Source: Bacteroidota bacterium
Lineage (GTDB): Bacteria; Bacteroidota; Bacteroidia; Bacteroidales; FEN-979
Direction of reading: 5' to 3'
DNA: 47,551 bases
Assembly (NCBI GenBank): GCA_037139855.1
Contig: JBAXFM010000003.1
Coordinates: forward strand, 1 to 47,551
Within the stretch, counting starts at the first letter, position 1. Each line of letters starts with the position of its first letter. Both the position numbers and the translations under genes were made by a program. The notes under the pieces are model-generated. The model ran no database searches. It saw nothing but the letters and a program-made list of their open reading frames with translations, and was not told where the DNA came from. Positions 1,241 through 14,251 of the stretch are shown piece by piece.

Positions 1241-2641
1241 ATGAATAAATCGAGTGAATTTATTGTAAACGATGAAAGATTAACCTGGGAAAAGGCTTTT
1301 GATGCTATTCCCGACCTGATTGCCATCATCGACAAAGATCATCGCATCGTAAAAGCAAACAAGGCGATGGCCGAAAAACTGCGATGCTCATCCGAAACTG
1401 TTGCAGGCTGCCACTGCTTTGAGGTGATGCATGGTACGCATGAGCCGCCCGATTTTTGTCCACATTCAAGGTTGTTGCTGAGTGAGAATGAAGAACACAG
1501 CGAAGCTGTTGAATCTCGTTTGGGTGGAGTTTACGACATATCTACAACACCTTTGTTCGATAATGAGGGAAGGCTGACCGGAAGCATCCATGTGGCAAGA
1601 GATATCGGCGCTCATCAGAAAAAGGAACAACTGATGGCGGAAAATCTTGCCCTTGCTGACTTCTCTTTGAATCATTCTACCAGTGAACTCCTTACCCGTA
1701 CAATAGATAAAGTTGAATCGCTTACGGGAAGCCAGATTGGTTTTTTTCATTTTCTGGATGAAGATGAAATGACCGTTTCCATGCAGGCCTGGTCGACCAA
1801 CACATTGAATTTCCTGTGTACTACAGAAGGAATTGAAAAACACTATTCAGTGCTTCAGGCCGGGGTATGGGTTGATTGTATCCATGAACGGCGTCCGGTG
1901 ATCCACAACGATTTTGCCAGTCTCCCGCACCGAAAAGGAGTACCGGAAGGTCATGCCACGATTATCAGAGAACTTACCATTCCCGTCATCCGTGGCGAGA
2001 AGGTTGTTGCAGTGATGGGAGTTGGCAACAAACTAACCGACTACGATGAGAATGACATCGAAATTGTAAGTCAATTGACCAACATGGCCTGGGAATACAT
2101 TGTTAGTAAACGTTTTGAAGAAGCGTTAAATAAAAGTGAACAATATGCACGGGCCTTACTGAATGCTATTCCGGACTTGATTTTTCGCATGGACCGTGAC
2201 GGAACATACCTTGATGTAAAGGCTCCAAGGGAGGACTTATACTATCAGACAGATTCAATAATTGGGAAGAACAACAGGGATCTTTCTCCACCTGATTTTG
2301 CCGATCTGATTGAGGCAAAGATCTATTTAACCCTGGAGCATGGAAATATGGAGGTTTTTGAATATGAATTACCATTGCCAGGGAAGGGCATCCGCCATTT
2401 TGAAGCAAGGATGGTGTCAAATGGACCTGATGAAATTACAGCCATCGCACGTGATATTACCGATTGGAAGCAAACAAATGAAGCGCTTAAAAAGAAAATA
2501 GGGGAACTGGAATGGTTTAACCGTATGATGGTTGACCGGGAGGTGAAAATGATAGAATTGAAGAAGGAAATTAACATACTGGCCAACAGACTCGGGGAAG
2601 ATGACCGTTATGTAATACATTTTAATCAAGATATAAAATGA
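1241..2641 (+). CDS. Cytoplasmic PAS-GAF-PAS sensor with conserved C-terminal coiled-coil tail and no output domain
   Basis: PAS (FDAIPDLIAIIDKDHRIVKANKA...HVARDI), GAF (SQIGFFHF...RPVIHND...GVGNK) and PAS (LNAIPDLIFRMDRDG...ARDITD), then ELEWFNRMMVDREVKMIELKKEIN and stop. Confidence 0.85.
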   Translation: MNKSSEFIVNDERLTWEKAFDAIPDLIAIIDKDHRIVKANKAMAEKLRCSSETVAGCHCFEVMHGTHEPPDFCPHSRLLLSENEEHSEAVESRLGGVYDISTTPLFDNEGRLTGSIHVARDIGAHQKKEQLMAENLALADFSLNHSTSELLTRTIDKVESLTGSQIGFFHFLDEDEMTVSMQAWSTNTLNFLCTTEGIEKHYSVLQAGVWVDCIHERRPVIHNDFASLPHRKGVPEGHATIIRELTIPVIRGEKVVAVMGVGNKLTDYDENDIEIVSQLTNMAWEYIVSKRFEEALNKSEQYARALLNAIPDLIFRMDRDGTYLDVKAPREDLYYQTDSIIGKNNRDLSPPDFADLIEAKIYLTLEHGNMEVFEYELPLPGKGIRHFEARMVSNGPDEITAIARDITDWKQTNEALKKKIGELEWFNRMMVDREVKMIELKKEINILANRLGEDDRYVIHFNQDIK

Positions 2642-3732
2642 TTGTTGTCGCATTAATTTTTAACCTTGCAGTTCTCGTTTCAGTCAGTGTTTTTTCTGGT
2701 TTTATTGATAACCGTTATAAACGCAATTCAACTACTGGTGTTGTTTTTCAGGGCTTGCTGTTTGGCATGGTTGCATTGGTTGGGATGCTGGACCCATTCG
2801 TCCTTGCACCGGGGATTTTCTTTGATGGCCGGAGTGTGGTACTCAGCCTCTGCGGGCTTTTCTTTGGTCCGGTGGCTGGTGTGATTTCTGCGGCGATTGC
2901 ATTGGCATATCGGTTATATGCCGGAGGCGTAGGAGTTTACATGGGTGTATCCGTGATTATTTCTTCGACGTTGATCGGGGTGTTTTTTTATTACGTTAAG
3001 AAAGTAACAGGAAAACAGTCTAATACATGGTTTCTTTACGGCCTTGGCTTGATTGTGCATATTGTGATGGTGCTGCTTGTGTTTGCCATTCCCTCACCGA
3101 TGCGTTTGATCACATTTAAAACCCTGACCATTACCATTCTGGGAATTTACCCGCTTGCAACGGTCCTTATAGGGAAAATATTGAAAGATCATGAAAACAG
3201 CGCCGGTCGGAAAATAGCTGAAGCGGCTTTGCTGGAAAGCGAAAACAGGTTTACACTTTTTATGGACCACTTACCCGCTTTTGTTTTCATCAAGGATAGT
3301 AATTTCAAGTCAATTTATGTCAATAAGAAAATAGATGAAATGCTTGGAGCTTCTGCATGGATTGGTTTAACGCCCCCGGAATTTTTTCCGGGAGGATTCG
3401 GCGAAAAACTACTGGCCGACGATCATCATGCCATGGAATCAGGTTATGTGAAAGTAGAAGAAAACCGTCCTGATCTCAAAGGTGTGATGCACTTTTATGA
3501 AACTCAAAAATTCATCATCCCGCGTCAGGGTAAAGAACCATTGCTGGGCGGAATATCCATCGATATTACCGACCGCAAACGTGCCGAGGAGGAACTCAGG
3601 GAGAACACCCGGGAACTCAAGCAGTTTAACAGTCTGATGATTGGCCGGGAGCTGAAAATGGTTGAGCTGAAAAAAGAGATCAATGCATTGCTCATCAACA
3701 TGGGGGAGGAAGAAAAATATGTTATTCATTAA
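2638..3732 (+). CDS. 5TM-5TMR_LYT (LytS/YhcK-type) membrane sensor + PAS with the same C-terminal tail and no output domain
   Basis: Hydrophobic N-terminus with FDGRSVVLSLCGLFFGP...AYRLYAGGVG, a PAS ending ISIDITDRK, then ELKQFNSLMIGRELKMVELKKEIN. ATGA overlap with the upstream gene. Confidence 0.85.
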   Translation: MIVVALIFNLAVLVSVSVFSGFIDNRYKRNSTTGVVFQGLLFGMVALVGMLDPFVLAPGIFFDGRSVVLSLCGLFFGPVAGVISAAIALAYRLYAGGVGVYMGVSVIISSTLIGVFFYYVKKVTGKQSNTWFLYGLGLIVHIVMVLLVFAIPSPMRLITFKTLTITILGIYPLATVLIGKILKDHENSAGRKIAEAALLESENRFTLFMDHLPAFVFIKDSNFKSIYVNKKIDEMLGASAWIGLTPPEFFPGGFGEKLLADDHHAMESGYVKVEENRPDLKGVMHFYETQKFIIPRQGKEPLLGGISIDITDRKRAEEELRENTRELKQFNSLMIGRELKMVELKKEINALLINMGEEEKYVIH

Positions 3733-3748
3733 AAAAATCAGCTGAACC

Positions 3749-5530
3749 ATGAACTCCCTTGAACCTGATAAAAGCATGCTTGCCCTCGCCCTTAAAAGTA
3801 TCGGCAATTGTGTTTGTATTTCGGACCTGAATGACAACATTATCTTCGTCAATGAATCATTTAGCCAAACCTTTGGATACAGTATCGAAGAACTCCGTGG
3901 AAAACCGATCAATGTCGTTCGGTCCGACTATAATGATCCAGAAAAAGTGTCGGTTATTTTTGCCGAAACACTCAAGGGGGGCTGGCGGGGTGAACTCATG
4001 AACCGCAGGAAAGATGGCACGGATTTTCCGGTTAGCGTTGCTACCTCTGTGATACTGGATGACAACGGAAAGCCAATCGCTGTGATGGGGGTAGCCAATG
4101 ATATTACCGAAACCAAGCGGATGCAGGCAAAGTTCAGGTCTGTGGCGGACCTCTTCCAGAATATGGGATCCGATACAACAAAGAATATTGACACAATCGT
4201 AGCCTGTGCCTGCGATGTAATCGGAGGGGCCGCATCTTTGTATAACAAGCTTGACGACACCGACTGTTCCCTGGTGGTGTGGGCTGGTCACAATCTGCCG
4301 TCGGAAATGGAGCGCAGGGATTCACCTGAAGGACACATTTGTTATGAAGCAACCATCAAAGGCCAGGACAAACCAGTTGTATTGGGTGATCTTTCTACGA
4401 CATCCTATGTGAAGTCAGACCCGAATGTTGTCCGGTTTGGATTTCGGTCATACATCGGCGCCCCCGTAAAGCGAAGAGGCAAAGCCATCGGCTCTTTGGC
4501 TGTGGTTGATTTGGTTTCACGTGAATTTACACCTGAAGAAATCGACCTTATTGGGATTCTTGCCAGCGCCCTTTCGCAGGAGGAGGAACGCCAGGATGCT
4601 ATAATGATTCTTGAAACCGCTGTACAACAGTCGCCTTCGGGTATCCTCATCGCCGATGCCCCCGATGTGAAGATCCGAATCGCCAACTCAAAGGCAATCG
4701 CCATCCTGCAAGGTGAGTCGGAAGGTGATACAGATTACGGATTGCATGGCGTTTCACGGTCGTGGACAACTTTCAGGCCCGATGGAACACTCTTATCTTT
4801 AGACCAACTTCCCCTGACACGGGCAATACAATACGGTGAAATTGCAGAAAATGAAGAGTTTATCATCCAAGCTGCGAATGGCGTCGAACATTTTGTTTCT
4901 GTCAATGCAGCTCCCGTAAGAAACACTGAAGGGGTCATCACTGCCGGAGTGGTGATGTTTCACGATATCACTGCCAAAAGACAAACGGAGCAGGAACTTA
5001 GAGAGAGCGAGGATCGGTTGCGGACCCTCATCAATGCCATGCCCGATATAGTTTGTTTCAAGGATGGAGAAGGCAGGTGGCTGGAAGCCAATGATTTTGA
5101 CCTTAAATTATTCGAACTTCAGGGAATAGATTACAAGGGTAAAAAAGATTCAGAACTTGCCCTCGAAAGTGGTTTTTACAAGGAAGCTTTTCTTGGCTGT
5201 GAGGAATCAGATGAAAAAGCCTGGGTCCACAAAGCTGCCTTAAGAGCAGATGAAACTATCCCATGCCCCAACGGACCTTCAAAAGTATTTGACATAATCA
5301 AGGTTCCTGCCTTTGATGAAAAAGGAGCACGGAAAGGATTGGTGGTAGTTGGCCGGGATGTTACCGAACGCATTCATGCTCAAAACGCCCTTCAGCATAA
5401 GGCTAGAGAGTTGGAACGGTTTAATAACCTGATGATTGGAAGAGAATTGAAGATGATTGAATTGAAGAAAGAGATCAATGAATTGCTTATTAAATCGGGA
5501 CATCCTGAAAAATACATGATCCATGAATAA
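3749..5530 (+). CDS. PAS-GAF-PAS-PAS sensor with the same C-terminal tail and no output domain
   Basis: PAS (WRGELMNRRKDGTDFPV...NDITE), GAF (RSYIGAPVKRRGKAIGSLAVVD) and two more PAS domains (FHDITA; GRDVTE), then ELERFNNLMIGRELKMIELKKEIN. Confidence 0.85.
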   Translation: MNSLEPDKSMLALALKSIGNCVCISDLNDNIIFVNESFSQTFGYSIEELRGKPINVVRSDYNDPEKVSVIFAETLKGGWRGELMNRRKDGTDFPVSVATSVILDDNGKPIAVMGVANDITETKRMQAKFRSVADLFQNMGSDTTKNIDTIVACACDVIGGAASLYNKLDDTDCSLVVWAGHNLPSEMERRDSPEGHICYEATIKGQDKPVVLGDLSTTSYVKSDPNVVRFGFRSYIGAPVKRRGKAIGSLAVVDLVSREFTPEEIDLIGILASALSQEEERQDAIMILETAVQQSPSGILIADAPDVKIRIANSKAIAILQGESEGDTDYGLHGVSRSWTTFRPDGTLLSLDQLPLTRAIQYGEIAENEEFIIQAANGVEHFVSVNAAPVRNTEGVITAGVVMFHDITAKRQTEQELRESEDRLRTLINAMPDIVCFKDGEGRWLEANDFDLKLFELQGIDYKGKKDSELALESGFYKEAFLGCEESDEKAWVHKAALRADETIPCPNGPSKVFDIIKVPAFDEKGARKGLVVVGRDVTERIHAQNALQHKARELERFNNLMIGRELKMIELKKEINELLIKSGHPEKYMIHE

Positions 5531-8408
5531 CCTGCGGATTATTTTCGCCATTGTCTCTTGCTGTATATTTGAGCAAGTTGGATTCCCTCAACAATACTTT
5601 ACCAAGTCGTACACCATTGAAAATGGTTTGCCAACCAGAATTGTCAACGATGCCTGTCAGGATAGCAATGGAGTCATGTGGTTTGCTACCTTTAACGGTA
5701 TTTCTTCCTATGATGGATTTCGTTTTACAAATTTTGATGCGAATAATGGTCTGCCCCGGCATTCTTATCGTAAAGTGAAATTTGATCAGGCCGGAGTTTT
5801 ATGGGGAATCCCATATAGCATATGTGATACACTCGTTTGTTTCCATCATGGCAGCTGGAAAAAAATCAATCCTCCCTCCAAAAATCCGAAAATTGAAGTT
5901 TCTGCATTTGATTTATGCACCCGAAACAGACAAACAGTGATATGTATTGGTCATTTTTCCGGACTTGATATTTTGCAGGATGGCCGATGGATTCATGTTG
6001 ATGTTTCAAAAGATCCTTTAAAAAATCAGATATTCTCCGTGATTTCAAAAGATGGAAACTTTCTTGTTCTGACAAAAACCGGAATATGGATATTGGATCA
6101 GGATAAAAATGGATGGGGGATCAAAGAATATTATCTGTCAGCGGGAGATCCAATTCTTGCAATGTATGTTGAAGGGCAGGGTAGAACCGATGAAAAACTA
6201 TGGATGTTAACTTCCCACCGTTTGATGTATCTCATTCATGGGAAGCTGAATATTTTCGCGGATAATTTTAGCCTTCCCGAAACAAATACCCTTGGGAAAG
6301 CCTTTTTGAATTTTGATAACCATGGCAATGTTTACTTTGGAAATAACTTCGGAAAATATTTTATCAGATCAACCGGAAGCAAAGCATTCCCGCTTCTGGT
6401 CAAAAATGGCTTTTCATCAAATGGAGCAGCTGGCCTTTTCATTGACAGGGAGGATAATTTATGGTTTTTGGATTCCCGTGGTGTTGATAAAATTAATAAT
6501 CTGATGGGTTTGAATTATTTTCAAAACCACGGATTGCTAGAAAATGAGGTGACTGCCATCTTAGAACTGGCTAATGGCGGATTTGTATTCGGGCACAACA
6601 AGGGAATCACGGTATTTGATGGTCAAAAATTCACAAGGTTTCCTTTTTCAGTCTCCGATGACATTCAGGCCAGGGTGATGGATATCATCCAGGATAAGCA
6701 GGGAAATGTGTGGATTGCCGCCAGCCGGCTTGGATTTGGAAAGATGATGAAAGATGGGAAATTCAAATGGTATCCGATGGATTCAAATTCACTGGCCGTT
6801 TCGATACACCAGGATCTCCACGGGCGAATTTGGATGAGTTCATCCCAGGAGTTATTCTATCTGAAAAACGATCGGTTAATTCCATATGAACACAACGATC
6901 GGATTAGTTCCCCTTTCAGGAAAATATTTTCTGCCGGGAAGGATGAAATTATCGGAGTAGGGTTGTATGGGGCCTATGTCGTTTCTGAAAATAAGGTGCG
7001 TAAAATACCGTTTGACGGGGAAGACAGAATGATAGGCTTTTTTACCTATTTTAAAAGCAGGTCAGGTATTGAATATTTTGGTACGTCGGAAGGACTTTAT
7101 TTCATGAACAATGGTGCAATCCGGAAGTTTCGCCAAAACGGGATCAGCATTGACAGCCCGGTCTATTTTATTTTTCAGGATACCGATCAGAATTATTGGA
7201 TCGGATCGAACAATGGCGTAATAAAATGGGATGGAAAAACCAGGATTGAAACATTGTCAATAAAAAATGGGTTGGCCGGAAGGGAGACAAACCGCTCAGC
7301 AGGAATGGTTGATTCACATGGGGGTGTATGGATTGGAACAGATATGGGCCTTTCCAGTTTTATGAAAGGATTCTCAGGGTTTAACACCAAGATACCCGTG
7401 ATTAAATTGCTGAATATCGAAGATACGAAAGGAAACCATCATTCATTTATTGATAATATCTTCATCGGATTTAATGATAATACATTGGTTTTCCATTTCA
7501 GAGGCATCTCCTTTGTGAATGAAGAATTAATTTCTTATCGTTACAAACTTGAAGGATTTGATCATGATTGGCAAGTTGCAAATCAGCCGAACCTGGATAA
7601 AATTAAGTTTTCCGGACTGAAACCTGGTAAATACCGATTCATAGTTCAGGCAAGAAATGCTTCCGGCGACTGGTCGGAAATTGCCTGTTCAGGATTCATT
7701 ACCATTAAAACACCGGTTTTCCGGACATGGTGGTTTATCCTGATCGTTTTAATAGTGATTAGTGCTATCATCTTTGGAATTTATAAACTGATATTGCAGC
7801 GTCAATATAATCTGAGGCTGGAAAAGGAGATTTCGGAACGCAAACTGGCAGAGCAACTACTCAGGGAAAGTCAGGAACTGTATAAACTCATTACTGATAA
7901 AATGGCAGATGTGGTTTGGCTGATGGATTTATATGGAAAAAGTACCTTCGTTTCGCCTTCAATTGAGCAATTCACCGGGTTCAGTGTAAATGAGTATTTG
8001 CAGCAAACCATAGAAAATCGGTTTGCTCCCGACTCGGTGGAGGTCGTCAAACGACAGTTCGGGAATGAACTGCCCCGACTCATTGCACAACCGGAATCAT
8101 TGCACGGATACATTAATACGCAAAGGCTGGAATATAACTGCAAAAATGGGGGTACCAAATGGGGTGAATTGCTCATGACACCTCTTTTTGGTCCAAATGG
8201 CGCTTTGCTTGGAATTCACGGGGTTACGCGCGACATCACCGAAGGTAAACAGGCTGAAGAATCGTTGAAGCAGAAAGCTCGGGAACTCGAAAGCTTTAAC
8301 AGCCTCATGATCGGCCGGGAGTTGAAGATGATCGAACTGAAAAAAGAGATCAATGAATTGCTGTTAAAGTTGAACAAACCCGAAAAATACACCGTTCATG
8401 AATTATAA
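5523..8408 (+). CDS. Periplasmic beta-propeller (Reg_prop) + Y_Y_Y + TM + PAS sensor with the same C-terminal tail and no output domain
   Basis: Signal peptide, repeated GL.../QD..G..W propeller motifs, Y_Y_Y (YRYKLEGFDHDW...LKPGKYRFIVQARN), TM (TWWFILIVLIVISAII) and PAS (GVTRDITE), then ELESFNSLMIGRELKMIELKKEIN. Confidence 0.87.
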   Translation: MNNLRIIFAIVSCCIFEQVGFPQQYFTKSYTIENGLPTRIVNDACQDSNGVMWFATFNGISSYDGFRFTNFDANNGLPRHSYRKVKFDQAGVLWGIPYSICDTLVCFHHGSWKKINPPSKNPKIEVSAFDLCTRNRQTVICIGHFSGLDILQDGRWIHVDVSKDPLKNQIFSVISKDGNFLVLTKTGIWILDQDKNGWGIKEYYLSAGDPILAMYVEGQGRTDEKLWMLTSHRLMYLIHGKLNIFADNFSLPETNTLGKAFLNFDNHGNVYFGNNFGKYFIRSTGSKAFPLLVKNGFSSNGAAGLFIDREDNLWFLDSRGVDKINNLMGLNYFQNHGLLENEVTAILELANGGFVFGHNKGITVFDGQKFTRFPFSVSDDIQARVMDIIQDKQGNVWIAASRLGFGKMMKDGKFKWYPMDSNSLAVSIHQDLHGRIWMSSSQELFYLKNDRLIPYEHNDRISSPFRKIFSAGKDEIIGVGLYGAYVVSENKVRKIPFDGEDRMIGFFTYFKSRSGIEYFGTSEGLYFMNNGAIRKFRQNGISIDSPVYFIFQDTDQNYWIGSNNGVIKWDGKTRIETLSIKNGLAGRETNRSAGMVDSHGGVWIGTDMGLSSFMKGFSGFNTKIPVIKLLNIEDTKGNHHSFIDNIFIGFNDNTLVFHFRGISFVNEELISYRYKLEGFDHDWQVANQPNLDKIKFSGLKPGKYRFIVQARNASGDWSEIACSGFITIKTPVFRTWWFILIVLIVISAIIFGIYKLILQRQYNLRLEKEISERKLAEQLLRESQELYKLITDKMADVVWLMDLYGKSTFVSPSIEQFTGFSVNEYLQQTIENRFAPDSVEVVKRQFGNELPRLIAQPESLHGYINTQRLEYNCKNGGTKWGELLMTPLFGPNGALLGIHGVTRDITEGKQAEESLKQKARELESFNSLMIGRELKMIELKKEINELLLKLNKPEKYTVHEL

Positions 8409-8414
8409 TTATTA

Positions 8415-9236
8415 ATGACTACTCAGCAAATCATTGAAAAATTGCAGTTTCAATATGGACAAGATTTTTCTGTTTATGCCACTTCTTTTCTGAGGAATGC
8501 ATTGGGAATAAGAGTAAAGGAAACAGGGTTACCTGGTTTGAACTCTTACCTGGATTTTATTGCCCAGGATAACGATGAGTTGAAAAAATTGACCAATTCC
8601 CTTCATATTAACTATTCCTTATTCTTCAGAAACCTATTGGATACCTCACTATTTGAGTGTTGCATATTGCCTGAACTGATACAATCTAAAGAAAAATACA
8701 ACTCCCGCTCGTTCAGGATGTGGTCGGTTGGTTGTGCAGAAGGCCCTGAACCGTATTCATTCGCCATGCTGGCCGATAAAGTGATCAGCGACAGGCAGTG
8801 CGAGATTCCTGTGATGGTGTTTGGTACCGACATTTCAAGCGCTGCACTCGACAAGGCACGTGAGGGAACCTATGGTGAGCAAGCCATGCAAAATGTAAAA
8901 CTTTCATTCCTCGACCGGTTTTTTGTGCTGAATCAAACACAATATTCAGTGAAGAACCATATAAAAAACCAAGTGTATTTTTCGGAAGGCGATATCATTG
9001 ATCCCTGTTATAATTCACCACCCGCAGCGATCTTTGCTGATTTCGATCTGGTGAGCTGCTGCAATCTGATGATATATTATCAGCAGGAGATTCAACAAAA
9101 GATCCTTGAAAAACTTCACAGGTCACTGGCACAAAATGGTTATTTGCTTGTTGGAGAATCAGAAAGATTGATTGTTGAGAAATTTGGAAAGTTCCGGAAG
9201 TTATATCCTTTGGGAAATGTTTTTATAAGGAAATAA
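8415..9236 (+). CDS. cheR: CheR-family SAM-dependent protein methyltransferase (atypical)
   Basis: Motifs INYSLFFRN, MWSVGCAEGPEPYS, GTDIS..ALDKAREGTY, FDLVSCCNLMIYY and GYLLVGESE. Confidence 0.85.
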   Translation: MTTQQIIEKLQFQYGQDFSVYATSFLRNALGIRVKETGLPGLNSYLDFIAQDNDELKKLTNSLHINYSLFFRNLLDTSLFECCILPELIQSKEKYNSRSFRMWSVGCAEGPEPYSFAMLADKVISDRQCEIPVMVFGTDISSAALDKAREGTYGEQAMQNVKLSFLDRFFVLNQTQYSVKNHIKNQVYFSEGDIIDPCYNSPPAAIFADFDLVSCCNLMIYYQQEIQQKILEKLHRSLAQNGYLLVGESERLIVEKFGKFRKLYPLGNVFIRK

Positions 9237-9245
9237 AAAGAGAGT

Positions 9246-9318
9246 CCCTTTCGCCAGCCCCTTTCCCAAAAAGGGAAGGGGAGTACTTTCCTTTTTGGGA
9301 AAGGATTGAGGGTTGGGG
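9246..9318. repeat. GC-rich nested inverted repeat (REP-like element, possible terminator)
   Basis: cctttcccaaaaagg (9260-9274) is the reverse complement of cctttttgggaaagg (9290-9304). An alternative hairpin cccctttccc/gggaagggg is possible. Same layout as 28860-28935. Confidence 0.7.
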
Positions 9319-9371
9319 AATTATTGGTATATCCATTGTTAATATAATAGATTGATAAAAAAAAAATCTTG

Positions 9372-9379
9372 TAACTTTG
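9372..9379 (+). promoter_or_regulatory. Bacteroidota -7 promoter element TAACTTTG for the histidine kinase
   Basis: Exact TAnnTTTG match 41 nt before the ATG at 9421, with TTG at 9352-9354. Confidence 0.65.
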
Positions 9380-9420
9380 TAACGTGACCAAATTGCAGCA
9401 ATATATCAACCCAACAATCT

Positions 9421-11661
9421 ATGATTAAAATCCTTTCAATTAGCGACAACTCTGATAACTTTGTGGTTCTTAATACGCTGCTCACCACATCCTTCCCTGA
9501 TGTTGTTTTTAGTTCATCACGCTCGGGTAAAACAGGAATTCAACAAGCACGGTCTACAGAACCTGACTTGATTCTGATTGATCTTGAGTTGCCTGATATG
9601 GATGGTTTTGATACATGCCGGTTGTTGAGGGAAGATACACTTTTGCAAAAAGTTTCCGTCATTATTTTAACCACAGAAAAACCAGATACATCAAACCGAA
9701 GCAACGCGTTGCATGCAGGAGCTGATGCGTTTCTCTCCATTCCACTGAACGAAAATGAGTTAATAGCGATTGTTTCAACAATGCGCAGAATAAAACAATC
9801 AGAGGTTCAGGTGACCCAGGAAAGGAAAAAGCTGGAATTGACATTTGAGGAAAGAACCAAAAGGCTTCAGGTACAACTGGATGACTTTAAAAGGACTGAC
9901 CTTGAACTGAAAAAATCATATCATGACCTCGAAATGACCAAACTGGCAACTTTAAACCTGATGGAAGACCTGAAGGCTGAGGTTGATCAGCGAAAGCGAT
10001 CTGAGGAAACGTTAAAGGAAAGTCAGCAGAAATTCATGGATTTGTCAATCATGTTTCGCTCCATCAGCGACAATATGACCGACATGCTATGGGCCAAAGA
10101 TCTGGAAAAGAAATTCATTTTTACAAACAAGTCTGTTTGCGATAATTTACTGCTTGCAACTGATACGGAAGAACCAATCGGAAAAGGCGACCTGTATTTT
10201 GCTTCACGTCAGCGTGAATTGCACACCAACGATCCTGTGTGGCACACTTTCGGTGAACTTTGTATTGATTCTGATCAGGTTGTGATGGATTCAGGAAAAC
10301 CGGAACAATTTGATGAATACGGCAACATTAAAGGACAGTTCATTTTTCTGGATGTCAGAAAATCACCATTGTATGACACCAAAGGGAAAATGATCGGTAC
10401 AGTGGGAAGTGCTCAGGATATCACCAGTGAACGTGAAATGTCAAAACAACTGGCACAAAGCGAACGTCAGTTGTCAACGCTTGTCAGCAACCTTCCCGGT
10501 ATGGTATATCGCTGCATGAACGACCGCGCCTGGTCCATGTTGTTTGTCAGTGACGGGAGTCAATCCTTAACAGGTTACACCAGTGAAGATTTCATCGACA
10601 ATCATAAAGTATTGTTTAATGACATTATTATAGAAGAATACAGGGAGATTGTTTGGAATGAGTGGCAGGTTGCACTTGCCAATGGTGACATGTATGAAGG
10701 TGAATACCCGATCATAACCTCAACCGGGGAGAAAAAATGGGTGTGGGAACGCGGGCGCGGAATATACAATGATCAGGGAGAAGTCCTATATCTGGAGGGT
10801 TACATCGAGGATATTTCAGGCCGCAGAATCGCGGAAGAGGCATTAAAAAAATTAAACAGTGAACTCGAACAACGGGTACTGGATCGCACTGCCCAGCTGG
10901 AGGCATCAAACCAGCGGCTGGAAGCCTCAAACAAGGAATTGGAGGCGTTTTCCTATTCCGTGTCTCACGATTTACGTGCACCTTTGAGGGCCATTGACGG
11001 TTTTACCCGCATCCTGTTTGAAGATTATCTTCCAATGTTTGATGAAGAAGGGAGGCGGGTATGTGCAGTCATCAAGGAAAATGCAGTCCGCATGGGGCAG
11101 CTCATCGACGACCTGCTCTCATTATCCCGGCTTAACCGCACCGACATGCAGATTGACAGGATAAACATGGCAAACCTTTCCAAAATCGTGTATGGAGAAA
11201 TTACCAGTGCCGAAGAAAAAAAGAGAACTGAATTTGAGATGATAAATGTTCATCCTGCATTCGGCGACCATATACTGGTGAGGCAGGTGCTGGTGAACCT
11301 TTTAGGCAATGCTGTCAAATTTACGTCCCAGCGTGAAATGGCAAAAGTTTCACTTTCGTCGGAAAAACAAGGCGATATGGTGGTGTTTTGCGTCAGCGAC
11401 AACGGCGCCGGGTTCGATATGAAGTATGTTGATAAACTTTTCGGAGCTTTTCAACGACTTCACAGTGTGAAAGAGTTTGATGGAACAGGTATCGGGCTTG
11501 CCATTGTTCAACGCATCATTCACAGGCATGGGGGAAAAGTTTGGGCCAAAGGAACAGTTGGTCAGGGTGCGTCATTCTATTTTTCGTTACCTTTGAAAAC
11601 CGGGGAACAAGGTATGATTACGCAGAAGGATTTACAAATAAAAAAAAATGAAACCATTTGA
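9421..11661 (+). CDS. Cytoplasmic histidine kinase: degenerate receiver - coiled coil - PAS - PAS - HisKA - HATPase (Cph1-like transmitter)
   Basis: REC fold ([16 protein letters not shown]), H-box [14 protein letters not shown]-box [10 protein letters not shown]-boxes DNGAGF and GTGIGLAIV. Confidence 0.92.
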
Positions 11662-12100
11662 TCCTGTAGATATCCTCATTGTTGAAGATAATCCTAGTGA
11701 TGCCGAGTTGACTATCAGGGCATTGAAGAAAAGCAATCTGGCAAACCACATCTTTGTTGCAGAGAATGGAGAAGAAGCGCTCGATTTTATTTTTAGCCAT
11801 GGACAATTTGCTGAACGTGACAAATCGAAAACACTTAAAGTTATTTTTCTGGATCTGAAATTACCGAAAATCAGTGGATTGGAAGTTCTTAAAGCAGTTA
11901 AAGCCAATGAATTAACTAAAATGCTTCCCATTGTTATTATTACATCTTCGAAGGAGGATCCTGATATTCAGGAGGCATATGCACTGGGAGCGAACAGTTA
12001 TGTGGTAAAACCTGTTGATTTTGATTCATTCATCCATGCGATTGGGACAACAGGGCTATACTGGTTGCTCATAAACGTTCCGCCAAAAGTAAATGGATGA
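11648..12100 (+). CDS. Single-domain response regulator (Rcp1-like)
   Basis: [27 protein letters not shown] and [11 protein letters not shown]...YWL. Overlaps the kinase stop. Confidence 0.92.
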
Positions 12101-12125
12101 CCATTACCAAAAGCGTATTTTTACA

Positions 12126-13352
12126 ATGACCGAAAACAAAGTATTACAAATTACCCGGGATGTTAGTTGGATCGGAGTTCTCGATCACGATATCGTAACC
12201 TTTGATGTTGTGATGGAGACCAAGCATGGCACTTCCTACAATTCCTATTTTATTGATGCCACAAAAAAGACAGTCGTTGAAACCGTAAAGGAGAAATTCT
12301 GGGATATCTACCTGGCTAAACTTATCTCTTTGGTTAACCCTGCTGAAATCGAATACATTGTTTTAAACCACACAGAACCGGATCACTCAGGTTGTTTGGC
12401 TCGATTGCTTGAAATTGCTCCGAAAGCCAGGGTTGTTGGCAGCGGCAATGCCATCCGCTATCTGAAAGATCTGATTGGCTACGAAATTCCACATCTGATT
12501 GTCAAGGATGGACAGACACTAAGCCTGGGAAATAAAACCCTGCAGTTTGTGGCGGCGGCTAATTTGCACTGGCCCGATTCAATCATGACCTATCTGCAGG
12601 AAGAAAAATTGTTGTTTACCTGCGATATCTTTGGTGAGCATTATTGCAATGCCGGGGTCTTCGATGATGTTGTTGGTGATTTTGACGATGCTTTCCGCTA
12701 TTATTATGATGTAATCATGAAACCCTACAGCAAATTTATGTTGCAGGCCATCGAACGCATCAGACCACTCGAAATTGCAGCCATACTTCCGGGTCATGGC
12801 GCTGTTTTACGCAAGAACTGGAAAAAATATGTAGATCTTTCTGAGCAATATGCACGTGAAGCGCTGAACGGACAGAAACCGAACCGCGTTTTTTTGGGCT
12901 ATGTATCTGCATACCAGAATACAGGGATCATTGCCGGGATGATAGCACAGGGAATAAAGGAGGCAGGCGACTTTGATGTTGACCTTTGCGATATCGAAAA
13001 GATGGATGCCGGCACCATCGAACAAAAAATAACCCAGGCATCCGCCATCGTTTTAGGCTGCCCTACGTTTAGTCAGAACATTCTGTTACCGATTTATCAG
13101 GTGTTTGCCCTGATCAATCCCATCCGCGATCGTAATAAACTGGCTGCGGCATTTGGATCCTACGGATGGAGCGGTGAAGGCGCCAAAATCATGACCTCGG
13201 CCATGAGCAATCTAAAGCTCAGGGTAATAGATGAAGGTTTGATGATCAAATTCACCCCGCACAGTGAAGTGAAGGATCGATGCATTGAGTATGGCAGAAA
13301 ATTTGGTAAACAAATGCTTGCTGGAGAAAAGAGTTTACCGGTGAGGGAATAA
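12126..13352 (+). CDS. fprA: FprA-family flavodiiron protein (O2/NO reductase type)
   Basis: GTSYNSYFI, NHTEPDHSG, LHWPD, FTCDIFG and PGHG metallo-beta-lactamase motifs, plus a flavodoxin domain (FGSYGWSGEG). Start is the ATG at 12126, or alternatively 12093. Confidence 0.9.
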   Translation: MTENKVLQITRDVSWIGVLDHDIVTFDVVMETKHGTSYNSYFIDATKKTVVETVKEKFWDIYLAKLISLVNPAEIEYIVLNHTEPDHSGCLARLLEIAPKARVVGSGNAIRYLKDLIGYEIPHLIVKDGQTLSLGNKTLQFVAAANLHWPDSIMTYLQEEKLLFTCDIFGEHYCNAGVFDDVVGDFDDAFRYYYDVIMKPYSKFMLQAIERIRPLEIAAILPGHGAVLRKNWKKYVDLSEQYAREALNGQKPNRVFLGYVSAYQNTGIIAGMIAQGIKEAGDFDVDLCDIEKMDAGTIEQKITQASAIVLGCPTFSQNILLPIYQVFALINPIRDRNKLAAAFGSYGWSGEGAKIMTSAMSNLKLRVIDEGLMIKFTPHSEVKDRCIEYGRKFGKQMLAGEKSLPVRE

Positions 13353-13399
13353 TAAATTTGATTTTTTTCAGTTATCAATTTCTCAAAGAAACCCATCCT

Positions 13400-14251
13400 G
13401 TGGTGAATTTTAACAGATACACGTTTTTATCAGGATTGTTGATCCTTGCGGGCCTTGTAAGTCTGCAATCCTGTTTGCCCGAACGTAAAGTCGCCAACAC
13501 ATTTATCCAGTCGCAACACATGATTACGTTGCTGGTTAACCCGCCTGCAATCGTTTTTAAGTACAATCACAAAGGTGAGGCGATCGAGAGATTTGATTCT
13601 CTGTCGCAAGCACAGCAGGATTCAGCGCTTTGGACCCAAAGCAGCTACATTCAGTTTATCAATGACAGCACGTTGCTCGAAAACTATATGAACAGTTTCA
13701 TCGAAGAATTGCGACTGCTAGGTTTTAACGTGTACCTGAATAGTTCCATCGATTCATTTAATGCGGTGAAACCACAATCCTACATCCTCAATGTTGCCCA
13801 GATCCAGGTGGATGAGTATTATTATCCCCTGAAGGATGAAGATGCTTTTCTCGATACAGTTTACTATAAGGAATTCAATTTGAATGCTGTCGACTTCAGT
13901 TGCTGGTTCGATCTGAGTAAAGCCGGTACAGAAACTTCAAGGAAAGCGCTGCTTTATGCCACCAATACTGCCTATGATACCTTTGACGGCCGCTTTTTCA
14001 ATGATCCGTTTTCAGGAACGGTGCGATATAAATATACCATCGACTCCCTCAAAACCAAAGATGTATATGACATGGCCACCTACCTTGGGAAAAAACATGC
14101 CGGATATCTTTACGACTTTTTTATGAATCAGTACATTGCAAAGCACCTGCCTGAAGGGATAAAGATGGAGGATTATTATCACTATAACCGCATCAGGAAA
14201 AGTTTCAATCCAGCTTATGATGAAAGGTTCGAAATTCTGGGAACAAAGTGA
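13400..14251 (+). CDS. Hypothetical lipoprotein
   Basis: Open frame 13358-14251 with a hydrophobic stretch and lipobox (LVSLQS-C). The start is uncertain (GTG at 13400 or 13403). Confidence 0.65.
   Translation: MVNFNRYTFLSGLLILAGLVSLQSCLPERKVANTFIQSQHMITLLVNPPAIVFKYNHKGEAIERFDSLSQAQQDSALWTQSSYIQFINDSTLLENYMNSFIEELRLLGFNVYLNSSIDSFNAVKPQSYILNVAQIQVDEYYYPLKDEDAFLDTVYYKEFNLNAVDFSCWFDLSKAGTETSRKALLYATNTAYDTFDGRFFNDPFSGTVRYKYTIDSLKTKDVYDMATYLGKKHAGYLYDFFMNQYIAKHLPEGIKMEDYYHYNRIRKSFNPAYDERFEILGTK

Follow-up and report, generated by a model that had tools for sequence, protein, structure and literature searches.

The window analysed here is a 47,551-nt stretch of a Bacteroidota bacterium genome (positions 1 to 47,551 of contig JBAXFM010000003.1, in an assembly of 5.57 Mb), which was inspected to ~14.6 kb. 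It contains nine co-directional open reading frames (ORFs; 1241-14251) with successive junctions of -4, +16, -8, +6, +184, -14, -8 and +5 nt. The first four encode sensor proteins without an output domain, which have a C-terminal module of ~52 residues in common, here called T. They are followed by genes for a CheR-type methyltransferase, a hybrid histidine kinase carrying a helix with the motif AxLNxxED (m), and a receiver (REC) protein. The question addressed is how T may connect several sensors to one kinase. The genes and elements concerned are:

1241-2641, + strand: sensor 1 (s1), PAS-GAF-PAS plus tail, 466 aa, without output domain (Pfam)
2462-2641, + strand: T tail of s1, residues 408-466, profile E 7.1e-26
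2638-3732, + strand: sensor 2 (s2), 5TMR_LYT membrane domain-PAS plus tail, 364 aa (Pfam)
3571-3732, + strand: T tail of s2, residues 312-364
3749-5530, + strand: sensor 3 (s3), PAS-GAF-PAS-PAS plus tail, 593 aa (Pfam)
5366-5530, + strand: T tail of s3, residues 540-593
5523-8408, + strand: sensor 4 (s4), Reg_prop propeller-Y_Y_Y-transmembrane segment (TM)-PAS plus tail, 961 aa (Pfam)
8241-8408, + strand: T tail of s4, residues 907-961
8415-9236, + strand: stand-alone CheR-type methyltransferase, 273 aa, in a clade of CheRs encoded directly after tail genes
9421-11661, + strand: hybrid kinase, REC-coiled coil with m helix-PAS-PAS-HisKA-HATPase, 746 aa
9946-9969, + strand: m motif A-T-L-N-L-M-E-D, kinase residues 176-183, within the Pfam-unassigned stretch 120-215
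11648-12100, + strand: single-domain receiver, REC only, 150 aa, its gene overlapping the kinase gene by 14 nt

A first-pass annotation of this DNA had described four tightly coupled genes (overlaps of 4 and 8 nt, a gap of 16 nt, then 6 nt to cheR) with different input modules, PAS-GAF-PAS, 5TM-PAS, PAS-GAF-PAS-PAS and propeller-YYY-TM-PAS. The junctions are as it gave them, and Pfam confirmed the modules. Also as claimed there, none of s1-s4 matched HisKA, HATPase_c, GGDEF or MCPsignal (PF00015) at E ≤ 0.01 in Pfam; a HAMP (PF00672) match was likewise absent. The "one soluble kinase" of that annotation is indeed a single kinase, with the layout REC-coiled coil-PAS-PAS-HisKA-HATPase rather than that of a plain soluble kinase. 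The window was correctly said to hold no methyl-accepting chemotaxis protein (MCP), CheW/CheA or CheB; the genome's matches to these are confined to other contigs (C109, C21, C310 and C41), with the only MCP match on C109. That contig (L009 1-15376) carries the genome's only MCP/CheW/CheA-CheW-REC/CheB/CheR-TPR cluster, and three CheB-CheR fusion genes lie on C21 (L010), C310 (L012) and C41 (L011). One of these three encodes CheB-CheR-PAS_10-PAS, again without output domain, ahead of two hybrid kinases, and another directly follows the gene of a HAMP-GAF-kinase protein with three REC domains.

The likeness of the four tails is far beyond chance. A hidden Markov model (HMM) built from them matched six ORFs in the assembly with E-values of 4e-31 to 4e-19, the next match having an E of 4.8. 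All four sensors were among the six (E ≤ 3.8e-19), so the shared C-terminal tail of the first-pass annotation stands, at ~52 rather than ~40 residues. The window tails and the two further genomic copies share 16 invariant columns. When the six-tail profile was scored against 1.84 billion representative proteins (clusters), it matched 14,870 clusters at E ≤ 1e-3 and 2,806 at E ≤ 1e-10, and in 146 of the 150 best matches the tail ended within 15 residues of the C-terminus. Over 298 distinct tails, conservation was 100% for R26 and K34, 99% for E27, 98% for L33, N38 and Y50, 94% for M30 and E36, and 90% for G45. Hydrophobic residues recur at positions 9, 16, 23, 30, 37 and 44 of these tails, a seven-residue period in which the invariant Arg falls on a d position of the core. 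T is thus laid out as a heptad coiled-coil helix with invariant or near-invariant Glu, Lys, Glu and Asn, followed by a Gly and a short Lys-Tyr-x-Ile end. Its predicted helicity rests on the heptad pattern and on the Atlas model of s2.

T belongs to no family in the databases searched. Pfam-A gave no tail match (best E 0.011, failing every cut-off), NCBIfam held no model covering the tail, the best PDB chain scored an E of 0.23, and none of the three places the tail in a characterised family, a match that the first-pass annotation would have counted against its reading. A structure search of the Atlas returned the aligned part as "no family" in 10 of 10 rows; the tail appeared there as a helix on PAS, REC and ETR1_N proteins, and a single helix gives no fold information. 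Row 6 of that search was a cluster of 187-aa proteins with an ETR1_N ethylene-receptor-like membrane domain whose C-terminal helix superposes on the tail, so that ETR1_N-type membrane domains may be one more T input type. The start of the tail resembles a HisKA helix, and a reading of the tail as a pseudo-DHp was considered and dropped because, by our own reading, the register is off by one residue. T appears to be an undescribed module: the literature searched, with subscription journals and supplements outside its reach, held no mention of it, nor any description of the m motif or of the gene order T > CheR > kinase.

We then turned to the carriers and neighbours of T. One genome per species was scanned; 491 of 600 candidate stretches were confirmed, and the best-scoring 80 loci were analysed. 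They cover more than 12 bacterial phyla plus archaea: Bacteroidota, Ignavibacteria, Chloroflexota, Verrucomicrobiota, Planctomycetota, Lentisphaerota, Kiritimatiellales, Nitrospirota, Desulfobacterota, Gammaproteobacteria, Acidobacteriota, Omnitrophota and Patescibacteria among bacteria, and Methanoregula, Methanosarcinales and Methanophagales among archaea. The 80 loci hold 102 tails (15 loci have two or three), 97 of which end within 15 residues of the stop codon, and not one of the 102 lies in an ORF with a kinase match. A word-indexed search limited to longer proteins yielded 148 candidates and 41 matches, all 41 being PAS proteins without HisKA, HATPase, GGDEF or MCP; among their input domains are SBP_bac_3, Peripla_BP, dCache, REC and Reg_prop. 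Across the loci a kinase was present in 62, REC in 59, CheR in 35 and CheB in 10. The gene after T (n = 100) encoded a kinase in 26 cases, CheR in 24, another T in 10, REC in 1 and some other protein in 26, the remainder being on the opposite strand (9) or cut off by the contig end (4). A recurrent order was (kinase > REC >) T or REC-T > CheR > ~1000-aa kinase > REC-m-...-kinase > REC, and in the locus maps REC-T proteins close kinase cascades.

Given a clean heptad pattern, T could in principle do no more than homodimerise or cap, as a coiled coil at the end of PAS and REC modules that has no specific partner. The sensors would then act otherwise, for example by forming PAS-PAS heterodimers with the kinase or by buffering ligand. 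The positions in which T is found, after PAS, REC or HAMP and sometimes with a linker and another sensor domain behind it, would suit such a role, and a single helix says nothing about fold. However, the polar residues, including the Arg in the core, are invariant from Bacteroidota to methanogens, which is more specific than expected of a generic zipper; the C-terminal Gly...Lys-Tyr-x-Ile is conserved as well, and so is the gene order with CheR and kinases. We regard this explanation as very unlikely.

The number of T genes per kinase suggests how the sensors are wired. The ratio of T to m is 4:1 in the window and 2-3:1 in L013, L015 and L021, which would fit several sensors feeding one kinase. 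One Paludibacter genome has four T genes, only one of them in a canonical cluster; the other three have no same-strand kinase within ~9 kb, and one of these has a kinase on the opposite strand. This scattering resembles that of MCP genes.

The m helix marks the kinases near T. The strict motif occurred in 47 of 13,156 ORFs of the 80 loci and was present in 44 of the loci. It was found in 33 of 106 kinase ORFs near T compared to 2 of 101 kinase ORFs of the window genome (Fisher p 3e-9, with the caveat that kin are not independent). The check proposed in the first-pass annotation, a tail HMM with neighbourhood analysis, thus did find T linked to a CheR clade and to AxLNxxED kinases. The Glu of the motif was Glu in 74 cases and Gln in 4. 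Where m stood directly before HisKA, it lay 17-19, 24, 31 or 53-54 residues upstream of the start of the kinase profile; since these spacings are roughly heptad steps, m is likely in register with, and part of, the helix that enters the kinase. T and the m region share no homology (hhalign probability 4.7). A DNA-pattern search for m in 201 Bacteroidota genomes matched 32, compared to 24 for the reversed control, with a pattern that misses Val-containing forms. Three natural proteins contain both m and a tail, with the layouts REC-m-tail, REC-m-PAS-tail and m-PAS-PAS-tail (L023 9024-9713, L046 2810-3865 and L087 3184-4302).

All six genes for CheB-CheR-PAS-T proteins have an m kinase downstream of them, directly or after one ORF. 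In two of these loci (L043, kinase ORF of 351 aa; L035, 634 aa) Pfam assigned nothing upstream of HisKA, where an m-bearing helical stretch lies. To judge from domain content, this pairing is one of complementary halves, kinases without a Pfam sensor domain beside sensors without output.

Natural fusions bring T and m into one chain. Among 200 sampled genomes of the phylum, 17 had the tail, and these 17 belong to one family (17 of its 39 sampled genomes), whose relatives are named Chlorobiaceae in the source records (27 clusters). Here the tail (E 1e-13 to 1e-23) is internal to a ~1000-aa protein with the layout PAS-T-(~45-residue variable linker)-m-HisKA-HATPase-REC-REC-Hpt (L093-L095; P0187-P0214); P0063 and P0073 have T-linker-m likewise. 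Sixteen of the 17 genomes have one copy of the fusion kinase; the other (G086) gives two matches, on short ORFs of 267 and 277 aa. Pfam found no HAMP on the PAS-T-linker-m-HisKA proteins. Between PAS and HisKA, the aligned proteins have just two invariant blocks, T and m, and a variable linker. Because a signal from PAS to HisKA must cross this unconserved linker, the T and m helices should touch; we consider this the strongest argument for T-m packing. It follows from the position of the fused T and m between PAS and HisKA that the split form would correspond to a kinase divided at the transducer, so that sensor halves could be exchanged. Gene linkage, conservation and fusions together support a model, based on sequence comparison, in which the sensors would dock in trans onto the kinase helix.

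Several observations weigh against this model. Both extra T genes of the window genome adjoin kinases without m: the copy on C92 encodes a 202-aa REC-tail protein closing an operon of four kinases, and that on C25 a tail protein with four PAS domains after a TPR-kinase. The window kinase is one of two m kinases in its genome, and the other, a REC-m-PAS-kinase in the chemosensory cluster of C109 (12133-13929, minus strand), has no T gene nearby, so m is not exclusive to T. Among the 26 kinases directly after T, 13 lack strict m, although two of these have a relaxed form; four of the eight Pfam-scanned post-T kinases lacking strict m are dCache- or 4HB-HAMP(-GAF)-kinase-REC-REC proteins. L029, L030 and L065 combine T with such a dCache/4HB-HAMP-type kinase and no m, and T also stands beside m-less kinases in archaeal loci. 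Gene fusion can arise from adjacency alone. About ten proteins (P0046, P0049, P0052, P0068, P0069, P0125, P0138, P0157, P0158 and P0181) have T-linker-PocR rather than T-linker-m. Finally, the 80 loci are a small sample, the best-scoring of 491, and therefore lean towards relatives of the query, and the locus-map labels come from home-made HMMs, built from proteins of this genome, and from crude ORF calls. The T-linker-PocR proteins have, after the internal tail, a linker that is acidic or rich in Pro, then a Cys-rich stretch, PocR-like by our reading, and a second, C-terminal tail; we would read them as two tandem sensor genes fused.

These m-less neighbours raise the alternative that T binds another part of kinases or receivers generally, such as the DHp/CA core or REC, m being merely a frequent REC-linker feature of one kinase family. 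Short helices of CheZ and FliM bind CheY, so there are precedents for a helix that recognises a receiver. The frequency of kinases and REC in the loci, the recurring order kinase > REC > REC-T and the m kinase without T in the C109 cluster would all be compatible with this alternative. It does not readily account for the enrichment of m among neighbouring kinases, for the pairing of every CheB-CheR-PAS-T locus with an m kinase (in the two scanned cases with the m-bearing stretch as the only element upstream of HisKA), or for T and m as the sole invariant elements between PAS and HisKA in the Chlorobiaceae fusion. We therefore judge general binding to DHp/CA or REC decidedly unlikely, and return to docking on m.

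The CheR of the window matched PF01739 with an E of 2.5e-43 and CheR_N with 25.5 bits, just below the 27-bit cut-off. The nearest solved structure was 5FTW (E 6.7e-32), with 1AF7 and 1BC5 at 5e-18, and on these matches the protein is a regular CheR methyltransferase. In a tree of 42 CheR domains, it formed one clade with the stand-alone CheRs encoded directly after T, one of them archaeal, separate from the CheB-fused CheRs and from CheR-TPR.

A distinct, T-linked CheR clade is what one would expect if T itself were a methyl-accepting element, a minimal analogue of the MCP adaptation helix. The adjacent CheR, which directly follows T in about a quarter of cases, would methylate T, and CheB would demethylate it where fused, so that methylation would control the action of adapting receptors on kinases. 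Six CheB-CheR-PAS-T fusions, a CheR-PAS-tail protein (P0041, one of the 41 longer matches) and CheB-CheR genes directly before T in L040, L057 and L059 fit this idea. So does tail position 17, where 13 of the 30 tails near CheR have Gln compared to 5 of 56 in loci without CheR (p 5e-4), and which varies among close orthologues (Gln in L016, Glu in window s4 and L015). However, the six CheB-CheR-T fusions have Thr, Lys, Gln or Glu at this position, and Gln17 co-occurs with His20, which looks like a subclade signature. The invariant tail Glu are almost never replaced by Gln (E27 0%, E32 1%, E36 2% of the 298 tails). Methylation sites of MCPs alternate E/Q within a Glu-Glu-x-x-Ala-Ser/Thr-like context, and the tail appears not to fit that sequence context. 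Moreover, 56 of the 102 tails are in loci without CheR, and two 99%-complete genomes with the fused T form have no CheR domain, which means that methylation is not obligatory for the tail. The coiled coil after CheR in P0041 is a run of Asn-Glu-Glu-Leu-type heptads; several of them fit the MCP pattern in the form Glu-Glu-x-x-Ala/Ser-Ser/Thr/Ala and may be a built-in methyl-accepting helix.

The kinases next to CheR also point away from T as the methylated helix. Where a kinase directly follows CheR, it belongs to an RsbK-like ~1000-aa class in 18 of 19 loci, by length class with Pfam on 3 of the 18; those three are 4HB_MCP-(HAMP in 2 of 3)-GAF-HisKA-HATPase-REC-REC, and such a kinase has an E/Q-rich coiled coil of its own. 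The window has no RsbK-like ~1000-aa kinase; L013 and L021 have both CheR and such a kinase. In the one studied analogue, that of Bacillus cereus (PMC4574943), the target of RsbM, an orphan CheR-type methyltransferase, is the signalling helix of the hybrid kinase RsbK (CHASE3-HAMP-GAF-S-helix-HK-CA-REC) and thus the kinase, not a partner, and 127 RsbK-like kinases are reported from 10 phyla. The ~1000-aa kinases after CheR (L013-L092) have a conserved E/Q-rich heptad coiled coil between GAF and HisKA, at the position of the methylated S-helix in RsbK. Taken together, we consider it unlikely that T is a methyl-accepting element. The first-pass suggestion that the system is possibly tuned by methylation keeps its footing in the linked CheR clade and loses it where T occurs in genomes without any CheR domain.

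The reading that we favour, to which we give about an even chance, is that T is a trans-coupling module packing on the m helix of a kinase, that several sensors thereby feed one kinase, and that an RsbM-like CheR tunes the assembly. Different inputs, from cytoplasmic PAS/GAF through the 5TMR_LYT membrane domain to a periplasmic propeller, would converge on T as their sole shared output. T would pack against the AxLNxxED helix, with which the signalling helix of a separate kinase begins; in the window, this partner would be the REC-m-PAS-PAS-kinase at 9421-11661. The sensors would drive this one kinase and through it phosphorylation of the single-domain REC at 11648-12100, if the signal runs in that direction. 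The stand-alone CheR would be an accessory, RsbM-like orphan methyltransferase that sets the bias by methylating Glu on one helix of the assembly. Leads towards its substrate are tail position 17, the Glu of m and the E/Q-rich coiled coil before HisKA in the ~1000-aa kinases. The split, many-to-one system proposed in the first-pass annotation is thereby upheld in part: C-terminal T on sensors without output, linked to the CheR clade and to m kinases, is consistent with it. Going further, T proteins might form a third large class of prokaryotic receptors, whose tail would be both a kinase plug and a CheR/CheB methylation site; we think this improbable. If true, two-component pathways from Bacteroidota to methanogens would gain chemotaxis-style many-to-one integration with adaptation.

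The tail module and the many-to-one wiring appear undescribed in the literature searched, as the first-pass annotation supposed in knowing of no characterised pathway of this kind, but the CheR-kinase pair has a precedent in RsbM/RsbK (PMC4574943). Already known are accessory sensors of two-component systems and methylation-tuned kinases. If T is a docking module, thousands of "PAS domain S-box protein" and "response regulator" annotations without output would gain a testable function, and there would be a general route for wiring several unrelated sensors into one kinase. T could then also serve as a portable connector for synthetic sensors. A pairing rule between the T helix and the AxLNxxED helix, if true, would allow partners to be predicted from sequence, and little-studied non-chemotaxis CheR/CheB genes, including RsbM-type enzymes, would be tied to defined helical targets.

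Three further features flank the genes discussed above:

1135-1168, + strand: terminator-like hairpin of 14 pairs, between a topoisomerase-like ORF (151-1068, NCBIfam match) and sensor 1
12093-13352, + strand: ODP-type di-iron/metallo-beta-lactamase plus flavodoxin protein, 419 aa, its gene overlapping the REC gene by 8 nt
13358-14251, + strand: ORF of 297 aa without family match, 5 nt after the ODP/flavodoxin gene

The hairpin likely marks the start of the transcription unit; a scan for sigma-70 promoters found 29 compared to 28.9 expected, and thus no signal. At the other end, the first-pass annotation had closed the unit at 12100. CheR, kinase and REC are present as it described, and the coupled genes run on past that point (12093-13352 and 13358-14251). 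The 297-aa protein has an N-terminal hydrophobic stretch ending in Cys, which we read as lipoprotein-like. L015, L016 and L021 have an ORF of 415-442 aa after the REC gene, like the 419-aa ORF of the window, and one of 287 aa in the same place as the 297-aa ORF. From these similar lengths, both genes may belong to the pathway, and the ODP/flavodoxin and lipoprotein-like proteins may be its sensor or its target.

Among known systems, RsbK-RsbM-RsbY of B. cereus (PMC4574943) is close: the gene of an orphan methyltransferase of CheR type, for which there is no partner esterase, neighbours that of a hybrid kinase, and the enzyme methylates the signalling helix of this kinase. Related loci with CheR followed by a 4HB_MCP-HAMP-GAF-coiled coil-HisKA-HATPase-REC-REC kinase look like RsbK-RsbM. 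In contrast, the accessible part of that paper mentions no tail-bearing sensors, and the window CheR precedes a REC-m-PAS-PAS kinase; its proposed likeness to RsbM is one of role. As a helical transducer between sensor and kinase, the fused T-connector-m unit occupies the place of the S-helix (Anantharaman, Balaji and Aravind 2006, PMC1592074) or of HAMP, which has a pair of short amphipathic helices and a short connector. Both T and m exceed these in length, are joined by a variable connector of ~45 residues, and are usually split over two proteins.

The system shares with chemosensory arrays (MCP-CheW-CheA) the many receptors of varied input per kinase, the partly scattered receptor genes and the linked CheR/CheB, whereas T sensors have no MCPsignal, the window has no CheW/CheA, and the kinase is of HisKA type. 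H-NOX/HnoK and NosP/NahK also place a sensor without output beside a kinase that it is thought to control, with one sensor fold per kinase and no known common docking module; here unrelated inputs share a tail, there are several sensors per kinase, and a methyltransferase gene is linked to them. Split histidine kinases (PMC3591291, PMC7656254) likewise spread one kinase function over two polypeptides. Such kinases are generally divided between the catalytic and the phospho-acceptor parts, whereas here the cut is a different one: it would lie between the sensor and the transducer helix.

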